A DNA stretch of 63,642 nt, filler included, from Choristocarpus tenellus KU-1152 (lineage: Eukaryota; Protista; Phaeophyceae), in the NCBI GenBank assembly GCA_964200185.2. It is 13 parts of 13 records of this genome, joined end to end, with 100 filler letters (N's around TTAATTAATTAA, not from the genome) between each part and the next. Parts side by side here need not be neighbours in the genome. Positions count along the whole stretch, not along the records: positions 47,155 to 50,495 come from CAXNAD020020696.1; 12 more parts are not named here. The stretch is one strand, 5' to 3'. The position numbers and the translations under genes are program-made. Below are positions 26,601-53,400 of the stretch, piece by piece. The first letter of the stretch is position 1, and every line of letters begins with the position of its first letter. The notes beneath the pieces were generated by a model, which saw nothing but the letters and a program-made list of their open reading frames with translations, did no database searches and was not told where the DNA came from.

Positions 26601-27917
26601 CCCTTGCCATTGGCTTTGCTACATTTGCTCCCGCTGTTTTCATAATCATGGTCAAAAAAGAAGTTCCATCTTCAAACCCTACCCAGTATGATAAAATTTT
26701 CAACTGACCGTCAGAACGCACCTTTTAACATAATGATACGCCAGGGGAAGCATTTCACAGCAGTTTTTACAGATGTATTGATGCCTTTGATGGATGGGTA
26801 CGAGACTGTAAGGCGTTTTCGCTTGTGGGAAAAGGAGCAAATCGTGCTAGGCAAACGATCACATCAGCCTGTATATGCTGTTTCTGCAAGCACCTCCGAA
26901 CAAGATCATGAGATGGCTCGAAGGTGAGAGCAGACCTCAGGTCCTGAAATCCCTTGGATCCAAGATATACCAAGTGGTATCGATTGAGTTGAACATTCAA
27001 GAAACATGTGACTCTCCGGTGTTCAGATCCATTTGTACCATGTACAGAGTGCACACCATTCAGGTATCACTTGGGGGACAATAAAATAGTATAATAGGTG
27101 AAGTATATCATTACCAGTGCAAGACCATGTTGATACGCGTGTCTTGGAGTCTCCTCTTCTTCACCTTAAATGTCGTTGGTTCCAAACTGCAAAAATGATG
27201 TATCAATTTGTCCATGAGTGGGGAGTTAATACTTGTATGGCACCCTGAGTCAAACCAACTGAGAGGTGTAGGTGGGGTCGCATTTTCACGATTTCGAGAA
27301 AAGTCATTTTTTTCCCCCAATTTTTACAATTGCAGGAAGAGCCGTCATTGAATTGTGGCGTCACTTTGTGTGTGGAAAGGGGGGAAATCCGTTTTGTGTA
27401 CACTATTGTGCATATACAGCAATGAAGTATAGTGTATTGCATAGGATAAATACGATGGACTAGAATACAAAAAAGGGTCAAAACCTGCCTACCTCTCAAT
27501 TGGTTTGACTCTCCTATGTTCCTAGTCCCTCTATTAGATGTTTATATTACACCAGTCCTGACTCTGGGCGATGACACTCCCCAGAGTCCATGTTGGGGGA
27601 GCATCAAGGTATTTCATCATGCTCTCAATTTTCTGTTGATGGCTTCTGTGGCACCAGTCAGACCTTACTCATTTCATTGTCAATCTCTACGACCTGTGTA
27701 TGCCTGCAGGGTGGGTATGGATGGTTTTGTCGCCAAGCCCGTTAAAGTGAAGGAGCTAGTCAACCTCCTGACATCAAGCTGTTGCGGAAGTTTGGCAAAT
27801 GCATCGCATCTAGGACCTGTTGACTGCAAAGCAGAACCGCAGTCAACCCATTCTTCAGGAGCAAAACAGAAAGTCCCTGCTTGTGATGATTCTTCTGGGT
27901 GTAGTGGTTCATTGTAG
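23635..27917 (+). CDS. Two-component signalling protein C-terminus with two receiver (REC) domains (exons 23635-23811, 24134-24235, 24710-24831, 24959-25046, 25261-25356, 26745-26923, 27710-27917)
   Basis: REC2 is canonical: VLLIEDE|ISILK...GYRVETATNG...VFTDVLMPLMDGYE...VYAVSAS...GMDGFVAKPV. REC1 is atypical: VLLVAD...NGFHALE...VLIDYD...LGADRIWTEP. Phases are consistent, with one GC donor at 25047. The 5' end is lost at the spacer. Confidence 0.85.
25526..25787. mobile_element. MITE family A copy in an intron of the REC gene
   Basis: TIRs, TSD ctac/ctac, and ttagggttaggg inside the left TIR. Confidence 0.9.
27247..27511. mobile_element. MITE family D copy in an intron
   Basis: TIR gagtcaaaccaactgagaggt / acctctcaattggtttgactc; flanks ccct/tcct. 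Confidence 0.85.
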
Positions 27918-41637: not shown

Positions 41638-44600
41638 TCACTCTCCGGTTACCTGTTCACGGACGAGGAAGTCATGCTTGATTCTCATCTCATCCAGCTT
41701 GAACTGCATTTTTTTCGCCTCAGTCTTCCCATGCTCAAAGTCCAAAACAAGCAAATCACTGCAGGGAGGATATTGGAGTGTGAAGGGGGGTCAGATACAG
41801 AGATCCTCTGCGGCTCACCAAACTGTAGTTGAGAGTACATTACACCTCAACAAGGGAGAGCATAGCTAGGAGACTTATTATGAAGCTTTTGTTTGTGGGC
41901 ACTGTCTTGTTTCATCACGCTTGACACATCTCGAGCCATCTTACCAGTTGGCAAAACCTTGACTCTGCTTCAGGCTGGTCACTTCTGAATGCAGAGTGTC
42001 CCTGTCCTTCTTGGCTCGAGTGAGGTGGTCACGCTGTTGATTGAGTCTCTCATCGAGCTCTGACAACTGTTGTTTGTGGTGTTAGGGTCAGGGTTATGAC
42101 AGGGGCTGTATGTGTGAATGATATTTTATTCCTGCAAGAGTCTGTGTAGCGTAAGCTCATCTCCTCTGTGAACACAAAGAACGTAGCAAGCACTGCTCGA
42201 CCCCCTGTTTAGCCCTGCACCCAATTAAGGAGATATGAACTAGTGCTCTCTTGAGGGGTGGAAGGTACCTGTCATGTGGTTTCTTCGGTTCAACAATGAA
42301 AAAAATAATCGACAACACTTCTGAGAAAGCTTTTAACATGTTGAAGCTTCATTGCATCTAACTACATCCAACCAGTGCTGCCCCCCACCTGGTCATGGAC
42401 GATGGCGTTCTTGGACGCCACAAACTGAAATTTCTCCCTGGTGTGGGTCAGCACCTTTGTGGTATTAAGATTGCAAAGAGGTTTAGGGGTGGTGCACTGG
42501 TCAATCTACAGACAACGATTCGATCTGGCAACCATGTCTCAAAGAGGTTGATGAAGTGGGGAAACAAACAAAAGCATATGTGGTAGAATTTGAGTTGGCA
42601 TTAGTTTCATGGTTGAAGGAAAGCATGGCGACTTGTCAATGGCACAAACACAGGAGCATAAAGACCCAAAGACTATGAGAGAGAGAGAGAGAGAGAGAGA
42701 GGTACTACCCAGGGTTGAGTTTTAAGGATGCTGACAATAAACCTGCAAGATTCGGCTTGTTGTACCAATGTTTATAGAGGGACTTCTTTAGTCCTGAACC
42801 CTGTAAAAGCACTTTCAAGCAGTGGAGAATTCACCACTCTCGAGTCAATCTTAGCACTTCATCCAAAGAAATGAGAGTGACTTAAATGAGATGCAAAAGA
42901 GCGGCTCAAAAACGAGAAATGGCCAAAACCTGCGTACCTCTCGTTTGCTCTCGCTCAAACATGTGTATCAGAAACTTGTGTAGACAATTTACAGAGAGGC
43001 CAAGTCCCAGAACAACAAAAGTAAACCCCACACCTGACCTGCACCGTAGTAGTGTTCTTCTTCCTCAACTTGAGCAACTCCTCATTTCGCTCCTCAATCT
43101 TCTCATTGAGGGTCTGATTCTCAATCTTGAGTTGCTCGAAGTCGATCAGGTGGAGCCTGGTTTGAGCACAGTCAGTGTAAGAATTTTCAGCGGTTGGAGT
43201 GTTTTCGGGGTTTTTTTCCTCCTCTCTTGTTGACTGGTCTTAGTGGGGTCCTAGAAAACTGAAGTAGATTGATTTCAGTTGCACTTTTCTTACAGTGCAT
43301 GAAGTCAGGAAAGCGAGAAGAGCAACAAGCTGTCCAATAATAATGACTCTCAGTATCAATTTTTTAAGTATAGACTAGTAGTATTTGCAGTAGAGCTCTA
43401 ATGTACCACCCCTGCTTGAGTTCTCACCGTGAGTATATGTCAGGGTTAGGACTAGGGTTAGGAAAGGTCATGCATGCGCACACACAGTCAAAGTAAGTAA
43501 GAGGTAGCCAGAGTTGCAGTTTAGGGATGTTGACAAATATGTGTAAAATTCAACTCCTTTTGCAAGCGCGTATGAGATATTTTCTGAATTGTGTCGAAAG
43601 GTTTTTCAAACAATAGGGGAATCAACTTTCTTGAGTCAAACTTTGGCTCACATCAACAGGCGAGTTGCGCCTTCAAGATGCAATCCTAGAGTCATGAATT
43701 TCAAGCTGGTTGCATCATTTCACGGAAGTGCTACTAGTTGGGTGAGCACACCGTCCAGCACAGGTGAACAAATCATGTACCTCTGAAATTCCTGAGTGAC
43801 AACAGCATTAACACAATTGCTACATTTGCAATACTAATTAGATCAACACAGTAATCCACCCTTATGCTCATATATATATATATATATATATATTAGTGTA
43901 CATTTCACGTTTGAATAAGTCAACAGACTGCATTAACCCTCCAGTCTCCCCCACCCCCCCTCAAACTTAGAAGATTTGAGTTAGGGAAAGGGTTAGAGTT
44001 AGGACTCTGCTGCATCTTTTTTCTTGTCTACCTTACCCTTCTGCAAGCTGCTCCTTGGCTCGAAGATTATTTTCCAGTTTTTTGAGATTCATCCGTAAGT
44101 TGATATTTTTTAGCCTCACCTGTTGCCATGTACATAGATTGTACATTATAGATTGAGCGGAATGCTGGGTTTGAGACAGGAAGGAGGACTGCGGAGATGT
44201 ACCGCATTTTGTCATCATATAGTTATCAGCATCAGCACAGATGCGCAAACCTGTTGAGCATATAGACTTCAATAATAAAATAATAACAAATATTGAAGAC
44301 TGTAAGTAAGTGGTAGAGATTAATACTTACACCAAGGCAAAAATTACTCAGACAAGCCTTTTGCAGCTTTCCATCTGTTCATTCCATACGCGATACTTGC
44401 AAATCTTATCATTTATTATTCAAGTGTGACCGCTCGTATGGTTTTAACTTATAGTTACATAAGGCACAACTAAGTTTCGTACCTTCTCGATATCCTCATC
44501 CTTCTTGGCCTCGGTGGACTCAAATTGTGTGATAACTCCTTTTGGTATTGCTTTACCCGTTCGGCTATTTTCCGCAGTCCTCGCAATCTGCACAATGAGG

Positions 44601-46823
44601 CGGGAGACACAAACATGCCTGCTTAGAAAATTGACATTTCGAAATCGACATCCTGTTAGTATACTCTTTACTTGACCACGAATCAGTTAGTATACTCATT
44701 TCCTGTTTGCTCTGACCAAGTCATTGTTCCTCGATGTTGATCGTGCTGATAGCAGTCATAGTGGCTACGAGAGCGGATTGGCTTCACATTTACACCCCTC
44801 CCTTTCCTTGGAAACATATTAAACTAAAGACGGGCATCTCTCCTTCTTACCCATCCGATGAACGAGTGAAAGTATCTTAGGGTTAGGGTAGAGCCGTGTC
44901 CGTTTGGGGGACAAAATCCAATGTTGCGATTTGGATGTAATTTTGGCTATTGTGTTTGTTAGGAAGTGTCAATATCAATGTTCCAAACACACCATTTCAT
45001 AACGTATACATTTTACCTACTCCAAAACATTTCGGATTAGGAAAGTGTCATAAAAAACCCCATGGGAAGCCCAGCCCCAAATGGACAAACAGGACAAAAC
45101 CCTAACCCTCTAAGTTACTTTCACTCAAACCATTGATTTGTGTGTCTCACCCCTTCACTCCATACCAACCTATTGCTTCCAAAGCAAAGGAAGGTTATGC
45201 CCACGTACTGATACTTCCTATTATCTGACTCAGGTGTACTACCCAAGGATTGAAGAAGTATTTTGGAAGTAGAGGAGGTTTGTGTTAGTCTCTGATTTTG
45301 TGATTCCCCGTGGAGGGTTACCTGTTTATTTTTTTTGTTATCATTTATGAACATGAACAAGCAACGTGGGACTCATCAGAGAGCTAGCTCTACGCACGAG
45401 TATGGTCCTGTCATACTTCACTGCTTTCAACTGCCCTCTGTGGCATGTTGCCAGAGGGATCTCCAGGCATCAAATGCTTTGTCCTTGTAACATTGAGGCG
45501 ATAGGGGGACATGAATGAGAGGAAACGTTTGAACCAATGGGATAGTGTGGATGTTGTTTTTAAGCCAATAGGATGCATTTGCCCTGTGACAGCCCCTAAT
45601 CCTTCATTTTTTTTTTTCTAATACTGTGGACATTAACCGGTCCCTATCTAGACATCACATATAACATTTACAATTGACATCAAATTATAGACCTTAGTTT
45701 ATTCCAAAAACCACGCAAGTGTGGGGGAGTATATATAGCCCCAGTTGGCGCAGGCTGCCAATTTTAAAGCCAGATTGGAGATTACCACTGACAGAAGATA
45801 TCTATCACAGCTTTCCCCCCTGCTGCTGGTCAAAAACGTTGGCACCTAGTACCCCTGCATCCAGGGCCAGCGTCATTCACAAGTTCAAGGGTGAGTGGGG
45901 AGTCAATAGACAACAAACAGGCAATAGGATTGACCCTGCTGCTTGGTTGATGGGTGCCACTATCCATAATCAAAGGGTGGGCCACAATTCTGTAACGGGA
46001 GTAAGAAGAGACTACACAACCTATGCATGGAAAAGCTTAACATATCGGAGGATTCGAGGAACTCTTATGCAGGGTATAACTTCTGTACTGGAAAGGGGAG
46101 GAACCGAGGGGGGAGCCTGGACTTGGGTACTGTGTCCAGGTCACGATTTGCCTCCAGTACAAGTGTCGAGCCCTCCAGGATACATGCTATTGTTGTGGGA
46201 ACGAGTGCTGTACCAGGTAAGAGTCAGTGCACTATTGCGTTTATCAGACACAGTAAAAACAAGAGGTCTACCTCACCCCAGCACATTCCCTTTGAGCAGC
46301 AAATAGCAAGAAAACATAGAAATATCCCGATTAGTCACATATAGAACATACTACCATGGTATGATGCACTGCAAAAGTGTCACCCCAACAGGTAACATTA
46401 TCTTTGATTTGAATTTGTCCGATGCTCTTGTAATTCGATGAAAAAGAGCTTCATCTCATACCCAGCATCCCCTCTTCCACAAGCAAAAGACATGCGAGTA
46501 TGTATATATATACATACTTGAAATAAGTGTCCCCGAAAACTTTTTGCACTTGGCAGGGTCCTTCACCAGCCCGGAGGTCACGAGCAGCGCACACCCCGCA
46601 CAAGCCCTGGTCAAATGGCCACACCACTGTCGACTCCTTTCAAGCAAATCGACTAATTTACTGCAGACCTCAACAGCTCCAAGTATTTTTCTGTTTACTT
46701 CGCTACTCCACCTATGCGTACCTCACGTTTGAAGTCTCGGAAAGAGTTGGTGATTTCTCTAGCCTTGTACTCCTTCTCATCCAGGCGTGTCTGTAGCTCG
46801 ATGGCAATCTTGTCATACTCCAT
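41638..46823 (-). CDS. CCDC96: Cilia/flagella-associated coiled-coil protein CCDC96/CFAP184 (DUF4201), 3' part (exons 46823-46722, 44587-44483, 44119-44037, 43156-43039, 42454-42389, 42066-41945, 41758-41638)
   Basis: Spliced product FRDFKRE|IARTAENSRTGKAIP...|VRLKNINL...KEQLAEG|LHLIDFEQLKIENQTLNEKIEERNEELLKLRKKNTTTVQ|VLTHTREKFQFV. All junctions are GT-AG and in phase. The 5' end is lost at the spacer, and a further 3' exon after 41653 is possible. Confidence 0.9.
42663..42956. mobile_element. MITE family C copy in a CCDC96 intron, with a (GA)n expansion inside the left TIR
   Basis: gacccaaaga...(ga)n gaggtac...ccaaaacctgcgtacctctcgtttgctctcgctc. Confidence 0.75.
44864..45126. mobile_element. 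MITE family A copy in a CCDC96 intron
   Basis: TIRs; flanks gaac/aaac; TTAGGG/CCCTAA units in both ends. Confidence 0.9.
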
Positions 46824-47154: not shown

Positions 47155-47347
47155 GGGTTCTTTTATGACATTTTTCGTACTCAAATGTGTTTAGGACCAG
47201 GTAAAGTGTATATGTTATGAAAAGGTGTCTGGAACATGGATATTGACACTTGCTAACAAACACGATAGTTAAAATTTTATCAAAATCGCAACATTGGATT
47301 TTGGCCCCCAAATGGACGCGACTCTACCCTCTAAGATACTTTGGCTC
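47155..47347. mobile_element. MITE family A partial copy at a contig start
   Basis: Ends in ctctaccctctaagatactttggctc. Confidence 0.85.
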
Positions 47348-48893
47348 TGGATGAAGTGTCTCTGTGTCCTCAATATTTCTGGCCCACCCCCCACAACACA
47401 CGCCATATGCCATATTAATGTACAATCTTTCTTTTGCCGTGGTTTGTCTAGTCTCACACTCCTACCATCCTGCCCTGCCCTCTGTTTGGCGCTTTTGGCC
47501 TTTTGCAAGTTCCTTGCATACTGGTTTGAGTTGTGGTCCAACTATATTGAGGGAAAGGGGAGTGTGTCGGGATCGCCATGGTGGGAGATGAAAGAGTAAG
47601 TCTTGTGAGGGCAAGCAGTTTCTTTCCAGTACTTCAGTAGGGGCATGAGGCAGCCAACGTTCACTGTGTGCGGTTGTGCCTTTATTTATGGTTAGAGACC
47701 CTTTAACTTCTTATTCTGACCTTCCCAGCTGGTGTTTGTGTATTTCGGGTCCTCTGTGTTTGGATTGACCCATAGACAGAGAGTAGGCTGGAGTGTTTTA
47801 AACTTGGTAATATTTGGAAGAAAATGTAATGATCTGTTGTTTGGACTACTTGGCTGAGGGGGGTACATCCTGCAACACAGGATGACGATTATTCCTTTCT
47901 TACACTGTTGTCTGTAGTGTTGAGCCTAGTGTTTGGTAGCTCGGGTGGATTTGCTCTACTAGTTGGAAGTGCACAAAGGGAAGATGATGATTTTGAGTTT
48001 TGTCGTTTGTTCATACACCCGAACTAGAGCCCCATTATTGTGATGCCCTCCATTTTTTTCTGTAATATTCCTCTGTTTTTTAGACTGATGTAGTGATGGT
48101 GAGGGTGGAAGGCATCAGTGATAGAGTAAGACACTATGAGGAAGCGAGTTTTCTCCTCTGTTAGAGAGGGTACCATATATTGTCCATACTAGCCAATTAT
48201 TCATTTTCCCTCTTGGGTGTGTTACGCTGTATAAGTAAGCATAGTTGCCCATTGATTGAGATGAATACCACAATTTGTAGTTTTGGGGATAGTAGTAGTG
48301 CAATAGGCCACGTTTTAGAGCAATCTGGATCTTGTTTGATGAGCAACTACCACCACCTCTATAGTGAATAGGAGCTGGCATATTTACATTCCCTCAAGGA
48401 CACTCACTATTGCTACTGGGTGCAGTGGATAGAATTTTGTTTGTGCTGGAGGATTGGTACAAGTCTGATTTTACGCACTTTCCTACGTATGCACACAAGA
48501 GAAAAAAGTCCTAGCAGGACACCTGATACTGGCTGTTGTGCTACTCACATGCCATCGTTCAGCACTCTCTCCGTTACGTGTGAGTGATGGATTAATACAC
48601 ACCCCCTGATGAAACGGACCATTTCTCCTGCCTGCTTATTGATTTGGACTACAGGCTGTCTCCAGTCAGGATAGCATTTAGCTAAAAGAGCAGAGTCAGG
48701 CACAATCTTTTCTGTTGTTACAGATTGTTAGTTCTTCCTCGAATTTTCACTTCCACCTAGTGGATGCTGTGTACTGTCAAAACGCAGGGCAAGCAGTTAT
48801 TTGTAGACATAAAACCATATGTTCTAACTAAGAAACACGCAGCCAAACACTGACTACTTTCCACGTACCCTTATAATATACTGCATTATGTGT

Positions 48894-49639
48894 ATCGTGT
48901 GATTCTGTGGCGGCGTGGTTCACTCAGGCAAGGGTGGTGAAGAGAATCACAGGGCAAGACGGACCACACGAACAAGGACAAACCGTAACCGAGGGTACGA
49001 GGTTTAAGGTTGGACAAGTGCAAGAACTGAGGAGAGCCATTGTCCAACATGAATCAAGACACAATAGTCACCGGTATTCGTAATGTCCAGGAAGTCTTGC
49101 TCATCTTTGCTAAGGACCAGTCTGTTCATCAACTTTAATGAAAGCTCACGTTGCCACCATAACATAATACAGTAGCAACAGAAGAGGGCGATCGGAATGT
49201 GCTTCAATCCAGAGTTATTCGCAACATTCATACTGAAGTACAGATAGCCATGCTGTGGGTGCAGATCCATACGTGGATAACATCGACTCAGAGTACTTCG
49301 GTATCAGTGCTGCGAATAACTCTGGATTGAAGCACATTCCGATCGCACTCTTCCGTTACTACTGTATTATGTTATGGTGGCAACATGTGCTTTCATTAAA
49401 GTTGATGAACAGACTGGTCCTTACCAAAGATGAGCAAGACTTCGTGGACATTATGAATACTGGTGACTATTGTGTCCCGATTCATGTTGGACAATGGCTC
49501 TCCTCAGTTTTTGCACTTGTTCAACCTTAACCTCGTACCCTCGGTTACGGTTTGTCCTTGTTCGTGTGGTCCGTCTTGCCCTGTGATTCTCTTCACCACC
49601 CTTGCCTGAGTGAACCACGCCGCCACAGAATCACACGAT
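48894..49639. repeat. Long near-perfect inverted repeat (arms 48894-49241 and 49293-49639, 51-nt loop) containing a partiti-like virus capsid fragment
   Basis: The arms are reverse complements (outer ~110 bp identical, inner ~230 bp with about 17 substitutions by eye). ORFs 49004-49270 (-) and 49255-49530 (+) encode nearly the same peptide. The structure is certain; the viral identity is motif recognition only. Confidence 0.9.
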
Positions 49640-50134
49640 TCACAATTGTGATGTTATTAATTAAATCTGATATATATTTTATATCGGAACATTTGGAATT
49701 AAATGCAGTGTAAGTTTTGTTACCTCTATTCTCGACCAGGAATGACCCACAAGATAATCCCTCTCCACCAGGCTTAGTTCTCATATAGACTAGGAGGCGT
49801 GCAAAGTTTGAGATGGTGGACTGTCGTGACTGTGGAGGACACTGGTATAAAGTCGGCCAAATTACACTTGACTGGGTTCAAAAACCTCGGGAAACCGTCA
49901 AAGTGGGTGTGTATGGGGATGCCTACTATGAAGACCCCCTGCCGTTTGAGTGGCTCACTCATCCTGTCGTTGCCTGTAGGTCCTAATTCTTTGGCCCAGA
50001 AGTCTGTCCAGAGTCCAGACTCAAACATTCCAACGAAAAACAGCTTTTGGTGGTGCGATCCCATTGTTACACAACACATCTTTCTGTAGATGGGCGGTGA
50101 AAGCTGGGGTCTCCCTTGCCTTGTCGTCGGATCT

Positions 50135-50425
50135 GTGCAAGCGAGAGAAGGTGAAGGTCAATCAGTGGATTAAGTCAGTCCTCTCACACCAGCAGAAAGT
50201 CAACAGGGTGGGTTTCGTCATCAGCCAAACACACAGGAGGGGGGGAAGTGGGGTATTAGTGGACGATCTGTATGACTGGGTGTATGTGGACGAGAAGTGG
50301 TTTTACATGCTCATAGATGGGCAAGGTGTGTACCTGCACCCCACCGAGGACCCCCCCAACCCCCCACAGGCATATGATTAGTGTTATAATACGAAGGTGG
50401 TGTTTCTGCAGCTGTAGCCTACTGT
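50135..50425 (+). pseudogene. Tc1/mariner (DD39D-type) transposase remnant
   Basis: IKSVLSHQQKVNRVGF...DDLYDWVYVDEKWFYM....GVYLHPTEDPP...TKVVFL matches VHIDEKWFY...YL...E..P...KVMFL. Confidence 0.85.
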
Positions 50426-53400
50426 AGGAAGGTCTCCAATGAGGTGTGGTGTTATAGGAAAGACCCAAAGTATCTGGGAGGGGGGGGGGGGGTCTNNNNN
50501 NNNNNNNNNNNNNNNNNNNNNNNNNNNNNNNNNNNNNNNTTAATTAATTAANNNNNNNNNNNNNNNNNNNNNNNNNNNNNNNNNNNNNNNNNNNNGTGAA
50601 AAACGGACGTCGACACCCCCCCCAGAAACAATAGCATATGCTATTGTTAGCACCAGCATACAACATTATAGCTACAACTCTATAAAAATTCCAAAATCCA
50701 CATCACCCCCTTCCACAAAAAAATATTATCAGCATGATGATAATTACCACAGTTGCAAACTTAACAAATACACATTAGCATCTTCACGCGATCATTTAAA
50801 CTCAGCTTGTTCAATCTTCACACCCTCACTCCATGCCTCTCGGATAATTCTGGATTTGTGATTCGTATCCGATTTTGTGATCCCTCAGAGATGAACCCAC
50901 TTCTTCAATTTGTATGAACAATTTCTAGGTCTGTTCTTCGCTCATGGAGATAATAGGAACCCTGCTACACCTCACCACCACCACCACATGCCCACATGCC
51001 CACATTTCGTTAGTCTCTGGATTTGTGTTCGTTTCTGATTTTGTGACTCCTCAAGGATGAAGAAACCACTTCAATGTGGGCTAATAACAGCGATTTTCGA
51101 GGTTTTGTTTTTCATCTATATATTGCCCCGGAGAACAAAAAAAGGGGTGTGCTACAATTTACATGAATAAACGGATATCACTGTTTGAGGGGTCCTATAT
51201 TCATACGTCTGAATAATGTGAGCGAAAAACTCAAACGGAACTCCATCTCACCCAAGAAAAGCTGTGCGCGATTTTCAAAACTTCCTCACGAGCTGTCCGT
51301 TCTGCGACCATATATACAAATCAATACAAAACCCTCAAGGCAAGATAATTGTTGCAAGGGTTACAAAGGTTTCGAAATGTAATCAAGTATCATCGGCCTA
51401 AATTTGAGATCCTCCATTTTCAACTCTTCTTCTGTTGGAAGTTGGAATATGTTGGAATCGGTTCCCATTGCGTAGGGATTAATATAAGTCCTTCATCACG
51501 TATGGTATCCGCAAACCTTTAGAGTTCTATATTACTTCCTTATTTCCAAGTGAATCAAACATGAACAATAGAACCTAGGAAATCCTATTATGAGATATGC
51601 GACATCATTCAACCCCAACAGGCAAACTGCTGTACTTTGGTGTTGTGCGAACCATTCAATTACGGCCCGTGGACTTTGTGTGAACTATTCGAGGAAGCAC
51701 CGATATCATTAAACTTTTTTCATTCCTTCAAACGGAAGTTAGGGTTATCTTTTACAAACAGGTCAGAGTTGGGGTTAGGTTTAGGTTTTAGAAAAATTGT
51801 GCGAAAAAATGAAAAGAAGATGATAGTGAGTGGTGGTAGATCGTTGAGAGGTGATAGTTCCGTAGTGCACACTGTACTGCTGCACCACAGTGTAAAAGTT
51901 CTCCCATAATGTTTCCTTGGCTAGTTAGATATATTATTCACACATACGTTGGAGTTAGGGTTAGGTTTCCAAAATGAGTGCGAAAAAGTTAAAATACGTA
52001 TATTATAGTGGTGGTTCCTGAAGAAGGGGGGGTTGCCCTGTGCACTGTACTGGTTCACTCGGATGGTCTGGGCATACCCCATACGGGCTTCCCTCACGTT
52101 GGTGTACCTGACAGCTTCATCCCCTGCTCTGCAGCTGTTTGACGGAACATGGACACACCAACATAGTTCAAAATGAGGAAAACGTGCTAGTGTGCATGTT
52201 GGTGGATGAGGAATTAGCAACTGGGGGCCAATCGTCAGGGGGTTCCAGCTTTGTGACTTCGACTGAATACAAAGATCCGTCCCGCTCAAAAAAAGAGCAA
52301 GCGGCAGACCTTCCCTATCAGAAATGCATTATGCGCCTCCTGTGCAAGTAATAGACCCCATCAGCCATGGTGGCAAAGTGAGAGAGAAAAGGATATTATA
52401 GGCGAGGCCAGGGGAGAGAGCAACTGATTCCAACATGACATGAACATGCTCATCCTGGCCTACTTTGAAGTTTAGGTCCAGCATGCCATTACCCTCTATT
52501 GGTGATAAGAGTGCATTTTAGTAGTCATAAGAAGGCTATGATGACAGTGTTCTTAATTGTACATGTGGTATGTTAGTTGGGACGTTGGTCGCACTCTTGG
52601 GTGCGTGAGTAAGAGATGACATCCCTTGATCGTGTTGTACTGATCCACCTTGGTGTGATGTAGGCCTGTGTCCTTAATTCCCCCTTGTCAAAATGCTATT
52701 CCTTGGCTCTTTTCTTCCGAACTGGAGTTCCCCCCTCTTCCCCCCTAATTGATGTCTGCCCCCCCCCTCCTTGAAATAGTCAAAGCGGTAGTAGCCATTG
52801 CACTTCAAGAAAGTACAATCCCGTCCCGTGAGATACGCAACACACGGAAAATAACTCCTTGTCTCCCCGGAAGAAACCCCCTCTCCCCCTTTTTCATCCC
52901 GTCTTAGGGATTTGGATTCTGACCGGTCTGAGCCCCAGGTACGTTCACATTTGGGGTCCATGATCAAGAGTTCTGGGAGTAGAGTGTTAGCAGCAAGTTC
53001 TTTCCCTGCTAGGGGTCATATCCAATTTCTAAAACGATGGGACTGGGGCGAGAGTTATCCGCACATATATATTATGGTGCTGTAAAAATCTGATAAAAAA
53101 TATTACTATTAGTAACAGCGTTTTCTCTCGATTGGTCGTAGGGGTCGTAGGAAATAGGTGGTAAGATTGATTAACTAAGACCTTGATTTGGAGATATTCA
53201 AACCCTGCTTTTCAAATCACTGTTGTGAAGTATATACTGCTATGAATCATGATCCAATAAAACTCTCCGATATACTTTTTCCTTTTTCTTATGATCAAGA
53301 TGTCCTAAAACATCAGATATAGATATTCTTTTTGTGGGATTTCTTAGAAATACTATTGTTTAGAAATAAAATATATACTACGTGCAAATATATTTTTCAT

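Follow-up and report, generated by a model that had tools for sequence, protein, structure and literature searches.

How did a fragment of an RNA-virus coat protein come to stand in the genome of the brown alga Choristocarpus tenellus KU-1152 as two inverted copies around a short loop? The DNA analysed here, hereafter the window, is 63,642 nucleotides long and consists of short contigs joined by N-linkers; the hairpin lies on the contig at 47155-50495, which is bounded by such spacers. The answer that we favour as reasonably probable is that the viral fragment and the end of a long terminal repeat (LTR) were captured together by a template switch of a reverse transcriptase, duplicated by fold-back and inserted, and that the product is now decaying neutrally.

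The HMMER search of the peptide against 1.84 billion representatives gave 25 matches (best E 3.8e-13, 40% identity), 24 of which form one family; 23 of these were aligned, the long fungal protein P0010 being left out, and a bacterial adhesin with repeats (P0009) was dropped from the matches as spurious. A profile of 16 homologues, built from the peptide's own HMMER matches and not independent of that search, collected 63 proteins, including seven named partitivirus or partiti-like coat proteins and five proteins of fungal genomes. Over the six frames of the window, the profile matched at the two hairpin arms only, with no other coat-protein piece. The + strand match (49249..49506, E 3.9e-27) is an epsilonpartitivirus-like coat-protein fragment corresponding to about residues 95-183 of 500, and the - strand match (49025..49241, E 1.3e-16) is an inverted second copy without the loop part. 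Most full-length family members have about 500 residues and lie on contigs of 1.55-1.8 kb. Additionally, the window peptide shares 39-43% identity over 84-90 residues with virus proteins from Metarhizium, Beauveria, Colletotrichum and Penicillium, and its closest relative is an unnamed protein with 46% identity.

The model of one homologue, P0003 (pLDDT 72.6), had 48 viral structure matches at E<=0.001, and partiti-like coat proteins lead among the named ones. Against the PDB, the top four matches of this model were partitivirus capsids (E 0.12-1.2), with none at E<=0.001. Judged from the P0003 model, and not from the window peptide itself, the family is predicted to have the partitivirus capsid fold. 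Several other searches with the peptide were negative: Pfam returned nothing beyond DUF6686 at E 0.03, the PDB sequence search gave 0 matches, the word-indexed homologue search accepted 0 of 41 candidates, the protein atlas gave no usable match, and the scan of viral contigs found no relative; across the searches, no virus closer than 46% amino-acid identity appeared. In a coat-protein tree of 89 columns and 76 homologue fragments, from which rows with fewer than 70 aligned residues, with E above 1e-8 or duplicated were excluded, the window peptide formed a long unplaced branch outside the named fungal viruses, and its pairing with P0011 brings long branches together.

The partiti-like coat-protein origin put forward in the preliminary description is borne out by the HMMER family, the profile, its named partitivirus members and the matches of the homologue model. 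With its coat-protein similarity, its DNA in host context and its decay, the locus is an endogenous partitivirus-like element. A protein product is unlikely because no start codon precedes the conserved part: the + strand coat-protein fragment starts inside the loop, and the first Met is not found before residue 44 of the open frame. Three sets of unnamed members of the same family (P0008/P0031, P0083 and P0001) lie on contigs of 18-458 kb, and more endogenous copies are therefore present in other hosts. Moreover, P0013 (CAM9579742.1), a 251-residue 'unnamed protein' on a 4864-bp contig of Hapterophycus canaliculatus, belongs to this family and shares 33% identity with the window peptide. By its similarity, P0013 is a further candidate for a partiti-like insertion, in the assembly of another brown alga; it is probably independent of the first, and contamination is possible.

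The inverted repeat consists of arms at 48889-49241 (353 bp) and 49293-49644 (352 bp) that are 95% identical, with 334 of 352 aligned bases in common, 18 substitutions and one 1-bp indel. Contig evidence came from three coded runs (X1, X2 and X3) of one study, of which X1 is possibly the window's own source. Between the arms, with the fold-back point at 49241/49242, is an unduplicated loop of 51 nt (49242-49292) that is viral coding sequence on the + strand and is spanned by X1 and X2 contigs. The arrangement of two reverse-complementary arms around a 51-nt loop, as originally described, is thus confirmed by the arm alignment and by contigs of two runs. The + strand frame is present as well, open from 49237 to a stop at 49528-49530, and the 80 residues quoted for it lie inside the open frame. 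Meanwhile, the in silico fold proposed as a check gave a near-perfect duplex of about -660 kcal/mol on either strand; specifically, 48880-49655 folded at -664.5 kcal/mol (+ strand) and -659.3 kcal/mol (- strand), with z-scores of -58 and -65, respectively, against 20 shuffles each. According to this prediction, a long self-complementary transcript is possible from the hairpin.

The preliminary description regarded the arms as a viral capsid fragment, which holds for the inner part of each (about 215 bp) but not for the outer 135-145 bp, about 40% of the arm, which is host repeat. Summed contig depth was approximately 17-30 in the viral part and 1e4-5e5 over the outer 135-145 bp, compared with 17 in unique DNA. 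The outer part of the right arm (49500..49644, + strand) is the terminal portion of this high-copy repeat and ends in CACA; its mirror copy (48889..49034, - strand) faces outwards, and X2 record 9 aligns there at 48975-49054 with 0 differences. After the CACA at 49644, 66 X1 and 42 X2 contigs depart into unrelated flanks, so that the repeat shows two features expected of an LTR end: it terminates in CA, and many of its copies stop at a single point beyond which the flanks are unrelated. In X3, nine loose ends at 49644 have, one spacer nucleotide further on, a consensus led by TGG (agreement 0.45), the same motif stands at the mirror end in one contig, and a 1639-nt contig of depth 1308 continues from the repeat end. 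Sequence of this kind is what is typically seen where the 3' end of an LTR gives way to a primer-binding site. The outer repeat is likely to be the LTR 3' end (U5, perhaps R-U5), a reading drawn from 30-letter loose ends and from one contig known by its length and depth.

The TGG-led motif is complementary to the tRNA 3' end (ARAGORN) in 4 of 10 metagenome loci that are foreign to the host, and these represent two distinct sequences, Ser and Asp. The window itself contains no tRNA genes, no further copies of the repeat, and five near matches to the primer-site motif against 3.85 expected. Metagenome contigs yielded 0 matches to the repeat motif, and the two Rfam matches were both at chance level. 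The primer-site-like sequence occurs in two variants, at 48888 (X3) and 49651 (X2), which are distinguished by the inversion of 2 nt within a short palindrome.

The junction between virus and LTR falls at 49500..49509 (+ strand): other repeat copies diverge from the window at 49510, where loose ends occur, or at 49500, from which X2 record 14 aligns, and the coat-protein similarity stops there. The 7 nt at 49500-49506 fit the coat-protein frame and the upstream repeat sequence alike and may represent microhomology, which would be provable only with the donor virus. Virus-LTR joins in mosquitoes are reported as not homology-driven (PMC6797480, available text). Both arms hold one identical junction, which indicates that the virus/LTR join preceded the inversion. 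A viral copy-back RNA was also considered as the source of the hairpin and is unlikely, because the inversion takes in the LTR piece with the same junction.

These features suggest the following course of events. Minus-strand synthesis primed at the tRNA site would have copied the last 135-145 nt of the LTR, after which the strand would have switched to plus-sense coat-protein RNA for a further 260 nt or so. The observed order, sense coat protein followed by the sense LTR end, is the orientation predicted by a strong-stop jump to the viral plus strand, and the LTR piece matches the size of a strong-stop product. Copy-choice is the mechanism to which insect virus-LTR chimeras have been attributed (PMC5857290 and PMC6797480, available text). 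After the join, the new strand would have folded back at 49241/49242 and copied itself, the loop staying single. By analogy with yeast fold-back inversions, whose loops have a reported median of 36 nt (PMC7467729, available text), a single unduplicated loop of 51 nt appears typical of such events.

Insertion might then have been performed by an integrase, to which the product would be suited because the LTR CA end stands on both sides, and a DNA break that captured the product is about equally likely. The sequences ATTA at 48885..48888 and ATTG, within 49645..49651 (both + strand), could be a 4-bp target-site duplication with one mismatch; 5.6% of flank 4-mer pairs match as well, and none was found at 5 or 6 bp. 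The right half may alternatively be a remnant of the LTR/primer-site junction, and four X2 contigs track the window to 49651 and then enter primer-site-like sequence. Integrase and break capture are therefore not separable, given the 5.6% background and the possible primer-site remnant at the right flank.

We consider it unlikely that virus and repeat are chance neighbours, that is, that the virus entered otherwise, an LTR piece adjoined it later by insertion or deletion, and a chromosomal fold-back doubled both. The inverted segment stops at the repeat's natural terminus on both sides, the LTR piece has both the orientation and the size of a strong-stop product, and the window contains no further piece of coat protein, all of which argue against independent arrivals. 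On the other hand, the repeat is extremely abundant, so its adjacency is not rare, and the target-site duplication is weak. Additionally, partitivirus insertions are widespread, and the viral polymerase itself has been proposed to make DNA (PMC12027680, available text).

Since the duplication, the arms have diverged by 5%, mostly through non-synonymous and CpG changes; this distance gives no date without a host rate. The viral part shows about 7% divergence, with identical runs of 31, 35, 26 and 36 bases remaining. Fourteen codons of the viral part differ between the arms, 12 of them non-synonymously, and 12 of the arm differences are transitions, six at CpG. At the 12 differing residues, the right arm is nearer to the family at six and the left at three, and three are ambiguous, which suggests that both arms are eroded, likely by neutral decay after duplication. 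An origin of the arms from two different viral variants was rejected because only 2 of the 14 changed codons are synonymous. Substitutions amount to 3/135 in the repeat part vs 15/217 in the viral part (p 0.08). No difference separates the arms over their outer 109 bp, and CpG had decayed at 0/8 sites there vs 6/9 in the viral part (p 0.009, post hoc). Because a single duplication alone does not explain the outer identity, it suggests gene conversion or assembler collapse.

The capture reading is compatible with a present function, in which the locus is transcribed, diced to ~21-nt RNAs and kept since it restrains a persistent partiti-like virus. Read-through from a neighbouring promoter is predicted to yield a 350-bp duplex, from which Dicer would produce ~21-nt RNAs against the virus and the LTR family. 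Either strand folds to a near-perfect duplex with identical viral runs of 26-36 bases, but the viral part of the arms is diverging by 7%, with mismatches and CpG loss, and the nearest virus found, at 46% amino-acid identity, would be too distant for small-RNA pairing. Since the outer 40% of the arms is the end of a high-copy repeat, the hairpin RNA, if made, would partly match a transposon instead of a virus.

The left flank has some bearing on transcription. The unique DNA at 47508..48632, which has no long frame, is covered by one X3 contig with 0 differences (depth 203) whose match stops 257 bp short of the hairpin, at an AG after a pyrimidine-rich tract, beyond which the contig has 378 further letters that differ from the window. 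This hints, weakly, that 47508-48632 is possibly a spliced exon, non-coding or 3', pointing towards the hairpin. The X3/X1 depth ratio varies from 0.07 to 11.8 across the contig, as that of an RNA library might, and that of X2 from 0.28 to 0.59, but the X3 run type is unrecorded and summed depth does not measure expression. In Fucus, also a brown alga, 21-nt virus-derived small RNAs are made, and one Dicer and one Argonaute are reported (PMC6085071, available text). Intact Ectocarpus transposons are associated with small RNAs (PMC12477816, available text), and an inverted repeat of an RNA virus in soybean gives small RNAs, as summarised in the accessible part of a review (PMC6256188). An antiviral role of the hairpin is possible on the basis of the predicted fold, and we regard a working antiviral locus of this kind as doubtful. 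A bolder version would have the strong-stop jump onto viral RNA and the fold-back create, in one step, a mini-element with two outward LTR ends, integrase-inserted and Dicer-ready against virus and transposon alike; such one-step heritable RNA immunity in brown algae, as hosts of an unrecognised partiti-like lineage, seems to us quite improbable.

The outer repeat could alternatively be the terminal inverted repeat of a non-autonomous DNA transposon, of Pack type or a fold-back element, that had captured the virus. Inverted copies of one repeat end stand at both sides, many copies of the repeat end in random flanks, and the region is rich in MITE-like repeats. This explanation is nevertheless very unlikely: some copies run past the end into the TGG-led sequence and the 1639-nt contig of high depth, as expected where an LTR meets internal sequence and not at a transposon terminus. 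Moreover, the captured part is itself inverted, an outcome that capture between two termini would not produce.

That the hairpin contig belongs to the host genome, as described from the outset, is upheld by end repeats that it has in common with other contigs, including one with a brown-algal gene. The high-copy short, MITE-like repeat at 47155..47348 is common to other window contigs, and the neighbouring contig at 40875-47054 has repeats in common with both ends of the hairpin contig. An exon from this neighbouring contig is 100% identical to a C. tenellus protein and 78-80% identical to Ectocarpus proteins; specifically, protein P0091 of C. tenellus maps in seven pieces on the contig, as a multi-exon gene of the CCDC113/CCDC96 family (PF13870) at 41641-46823 on the - strand. 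The window is CpG-poor (observed/expected 0.48), and Choristocarpus is presumably a member of Discosporangiales. A brown-algal genome preprint states that DNMT1 was lost after Discosporangiales diverged (10.1101/2024.02.19.579948).

Several side observations were made in the flanks and elsewhere in the window. The right flank at 49708-50455 is moderately repeated and contains a decayed frame with a VDEKWFY motif, which we take to be a motif of Mariner/Tc1-type transposases; the frame had no Pfam match, and the protein atlas led to Tc1/mariner clusters at 0.80-0.87 only. At 26646-26924 (+ strand), an exon-like piece weakly matches the response-regulator receiver (E 5e-4, short of the Pfam cut-off). 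Most window contigs start or end in repeats with the common terminal motif CAAAGTATCT beside G or C runs, and these repeats are the likely cause of the assembly breaks.

The assembly of the hairpin itself was assessed with contigs of the three runs. A 147-nt contig that reaches 48 letters beyond the loop at either end is identical to the window in two of the three runs (X1 and X2), at depths of 15.2 and 8.9, respectively, vs 17.3 and 8.6 for the unique left flank. X1 and X2 are samples from a single study, and their arm-specific contigs likewise agree with the window at every position. Among the contigs listed, none bridges the outer joins with at least 31 letters on both sides (the left join reaches 28), and no single contig of the three runs crosses the whole element. 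The viral part lacks contigs in X3, and at 92% likeness none of the three runs covers 49671-49760, such contig holes not being evidence of absence. We take the hairpin structure to be genomic, because a chimera formed during amplification should have two identical arms and be missing from a second sample. An artefact of this kind, or DNA of a fungus or other passenger, is extremely unlikely: the assembly is fragmented, with no contig listed across the whole element, and most named relatives are fungal viruses or fungal genes, but the arms differ at 19 places that a chimera would have copied exactly, two samples contain the loop and each arm variant at a depth close to that of the flank, the flanking repeats are common to a contig with a brown-algal gene, and the CpG decay fits a methylating host.

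The locus stands as fossil evidence of infection of brown algae by partiti-like RNA viruses; counting the Hapterophycus gene, assemblies of two species now each offer a candidate case. In mainly open-access literature, covered by titles and abstract starts, no report was found of an RNA-virus insertion in brown algae or of an LTR-bounded viral palindrome. The term 'RNA virus' is absent from the main text of the brown-algal genome preprint (10.1101/2024.02.19.579948), whose supplements might list viral insertions. The junctions keep the likely order of capture, from the LTR-to-virus switch to the fold-back, a step mostly inferred from insect cell DNA. Given the 21-nt virus-derived RNAs of brown algae, it is directly testable whether fossil insertions of this type serve as heritable antiviral guides beyond plants and insects; if unexpressed, the hairpin would be an informative yet inert relic.

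Among known systems, chimeric virus-LTR DNA and endogenous viral elements in flies and mosquitoes likewise join viral RNA to LTR sequence and feed siRNA and piRNA pathways; no palindrome between two LTR ends is described in the available text, and in four cloned fly chimeras the virus is opposite in orientation to the element, unlike here (PMC5857290, PMC6797480). Endogenous partitivirus coat-protein-like genes also place coat-protein sequence in a cellular genome (PMC12027680, available text), and our matches include such fungal-genome proteins (P0002, P0010, P0080, P0084, P0085 and P0089). Unlike those genes, the present fragment is short, duplicated, non-coding and of the proposed Epsilonpartitivirus type; the words 'alga', 'oomycete' and 'stramenopile' are absent from the main text of that article. 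Colletotrichum liriopes partitivirus 1 has been placed in the proposed genus Epsilonpartitivirus (PMC8262616, available text), and the reported hosts of this genus, which includes Metarhizium brunneum partitivirus 1, are fungi and insects (PMC13761136, available text). With coat-protein identity of 39-43% to named members, the window branch is long and not nested among them.

Two further parallels are plant systems. Like the pararetrovirus hairpin loci of Solanum, the present locus involves a small-scale inversion of an integrated virus, for which heritable RNA immunity has been proposed, although the Solanum loci derive from reverse-transcribing DNA viruses and have mapped small RNAs (PMC9868043, available text). 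The soybean inverted repeat of cucumber mosaic virus RNA1 (Da Fonseca et al. 2016, as presented in the accessible part of the review PMC6256188) is likewise a non-retroviral RNA-virus inverted repeat beside LTR sequence and a proposed small-RNA hairpin. It has arms of 3.4 kb, a 0.5-kb host spacer, a position downstream of a Copia promoter and sequenced small RNAs, whereas the locus in C. tenellus, for which small RNAs are only predicted, has arms of 350 bp, a viral loop and an LTR end within each arm, in a brown-algal host. If transcribed, the hairpin would, by analogy, work like the soybean and Solanum loci.
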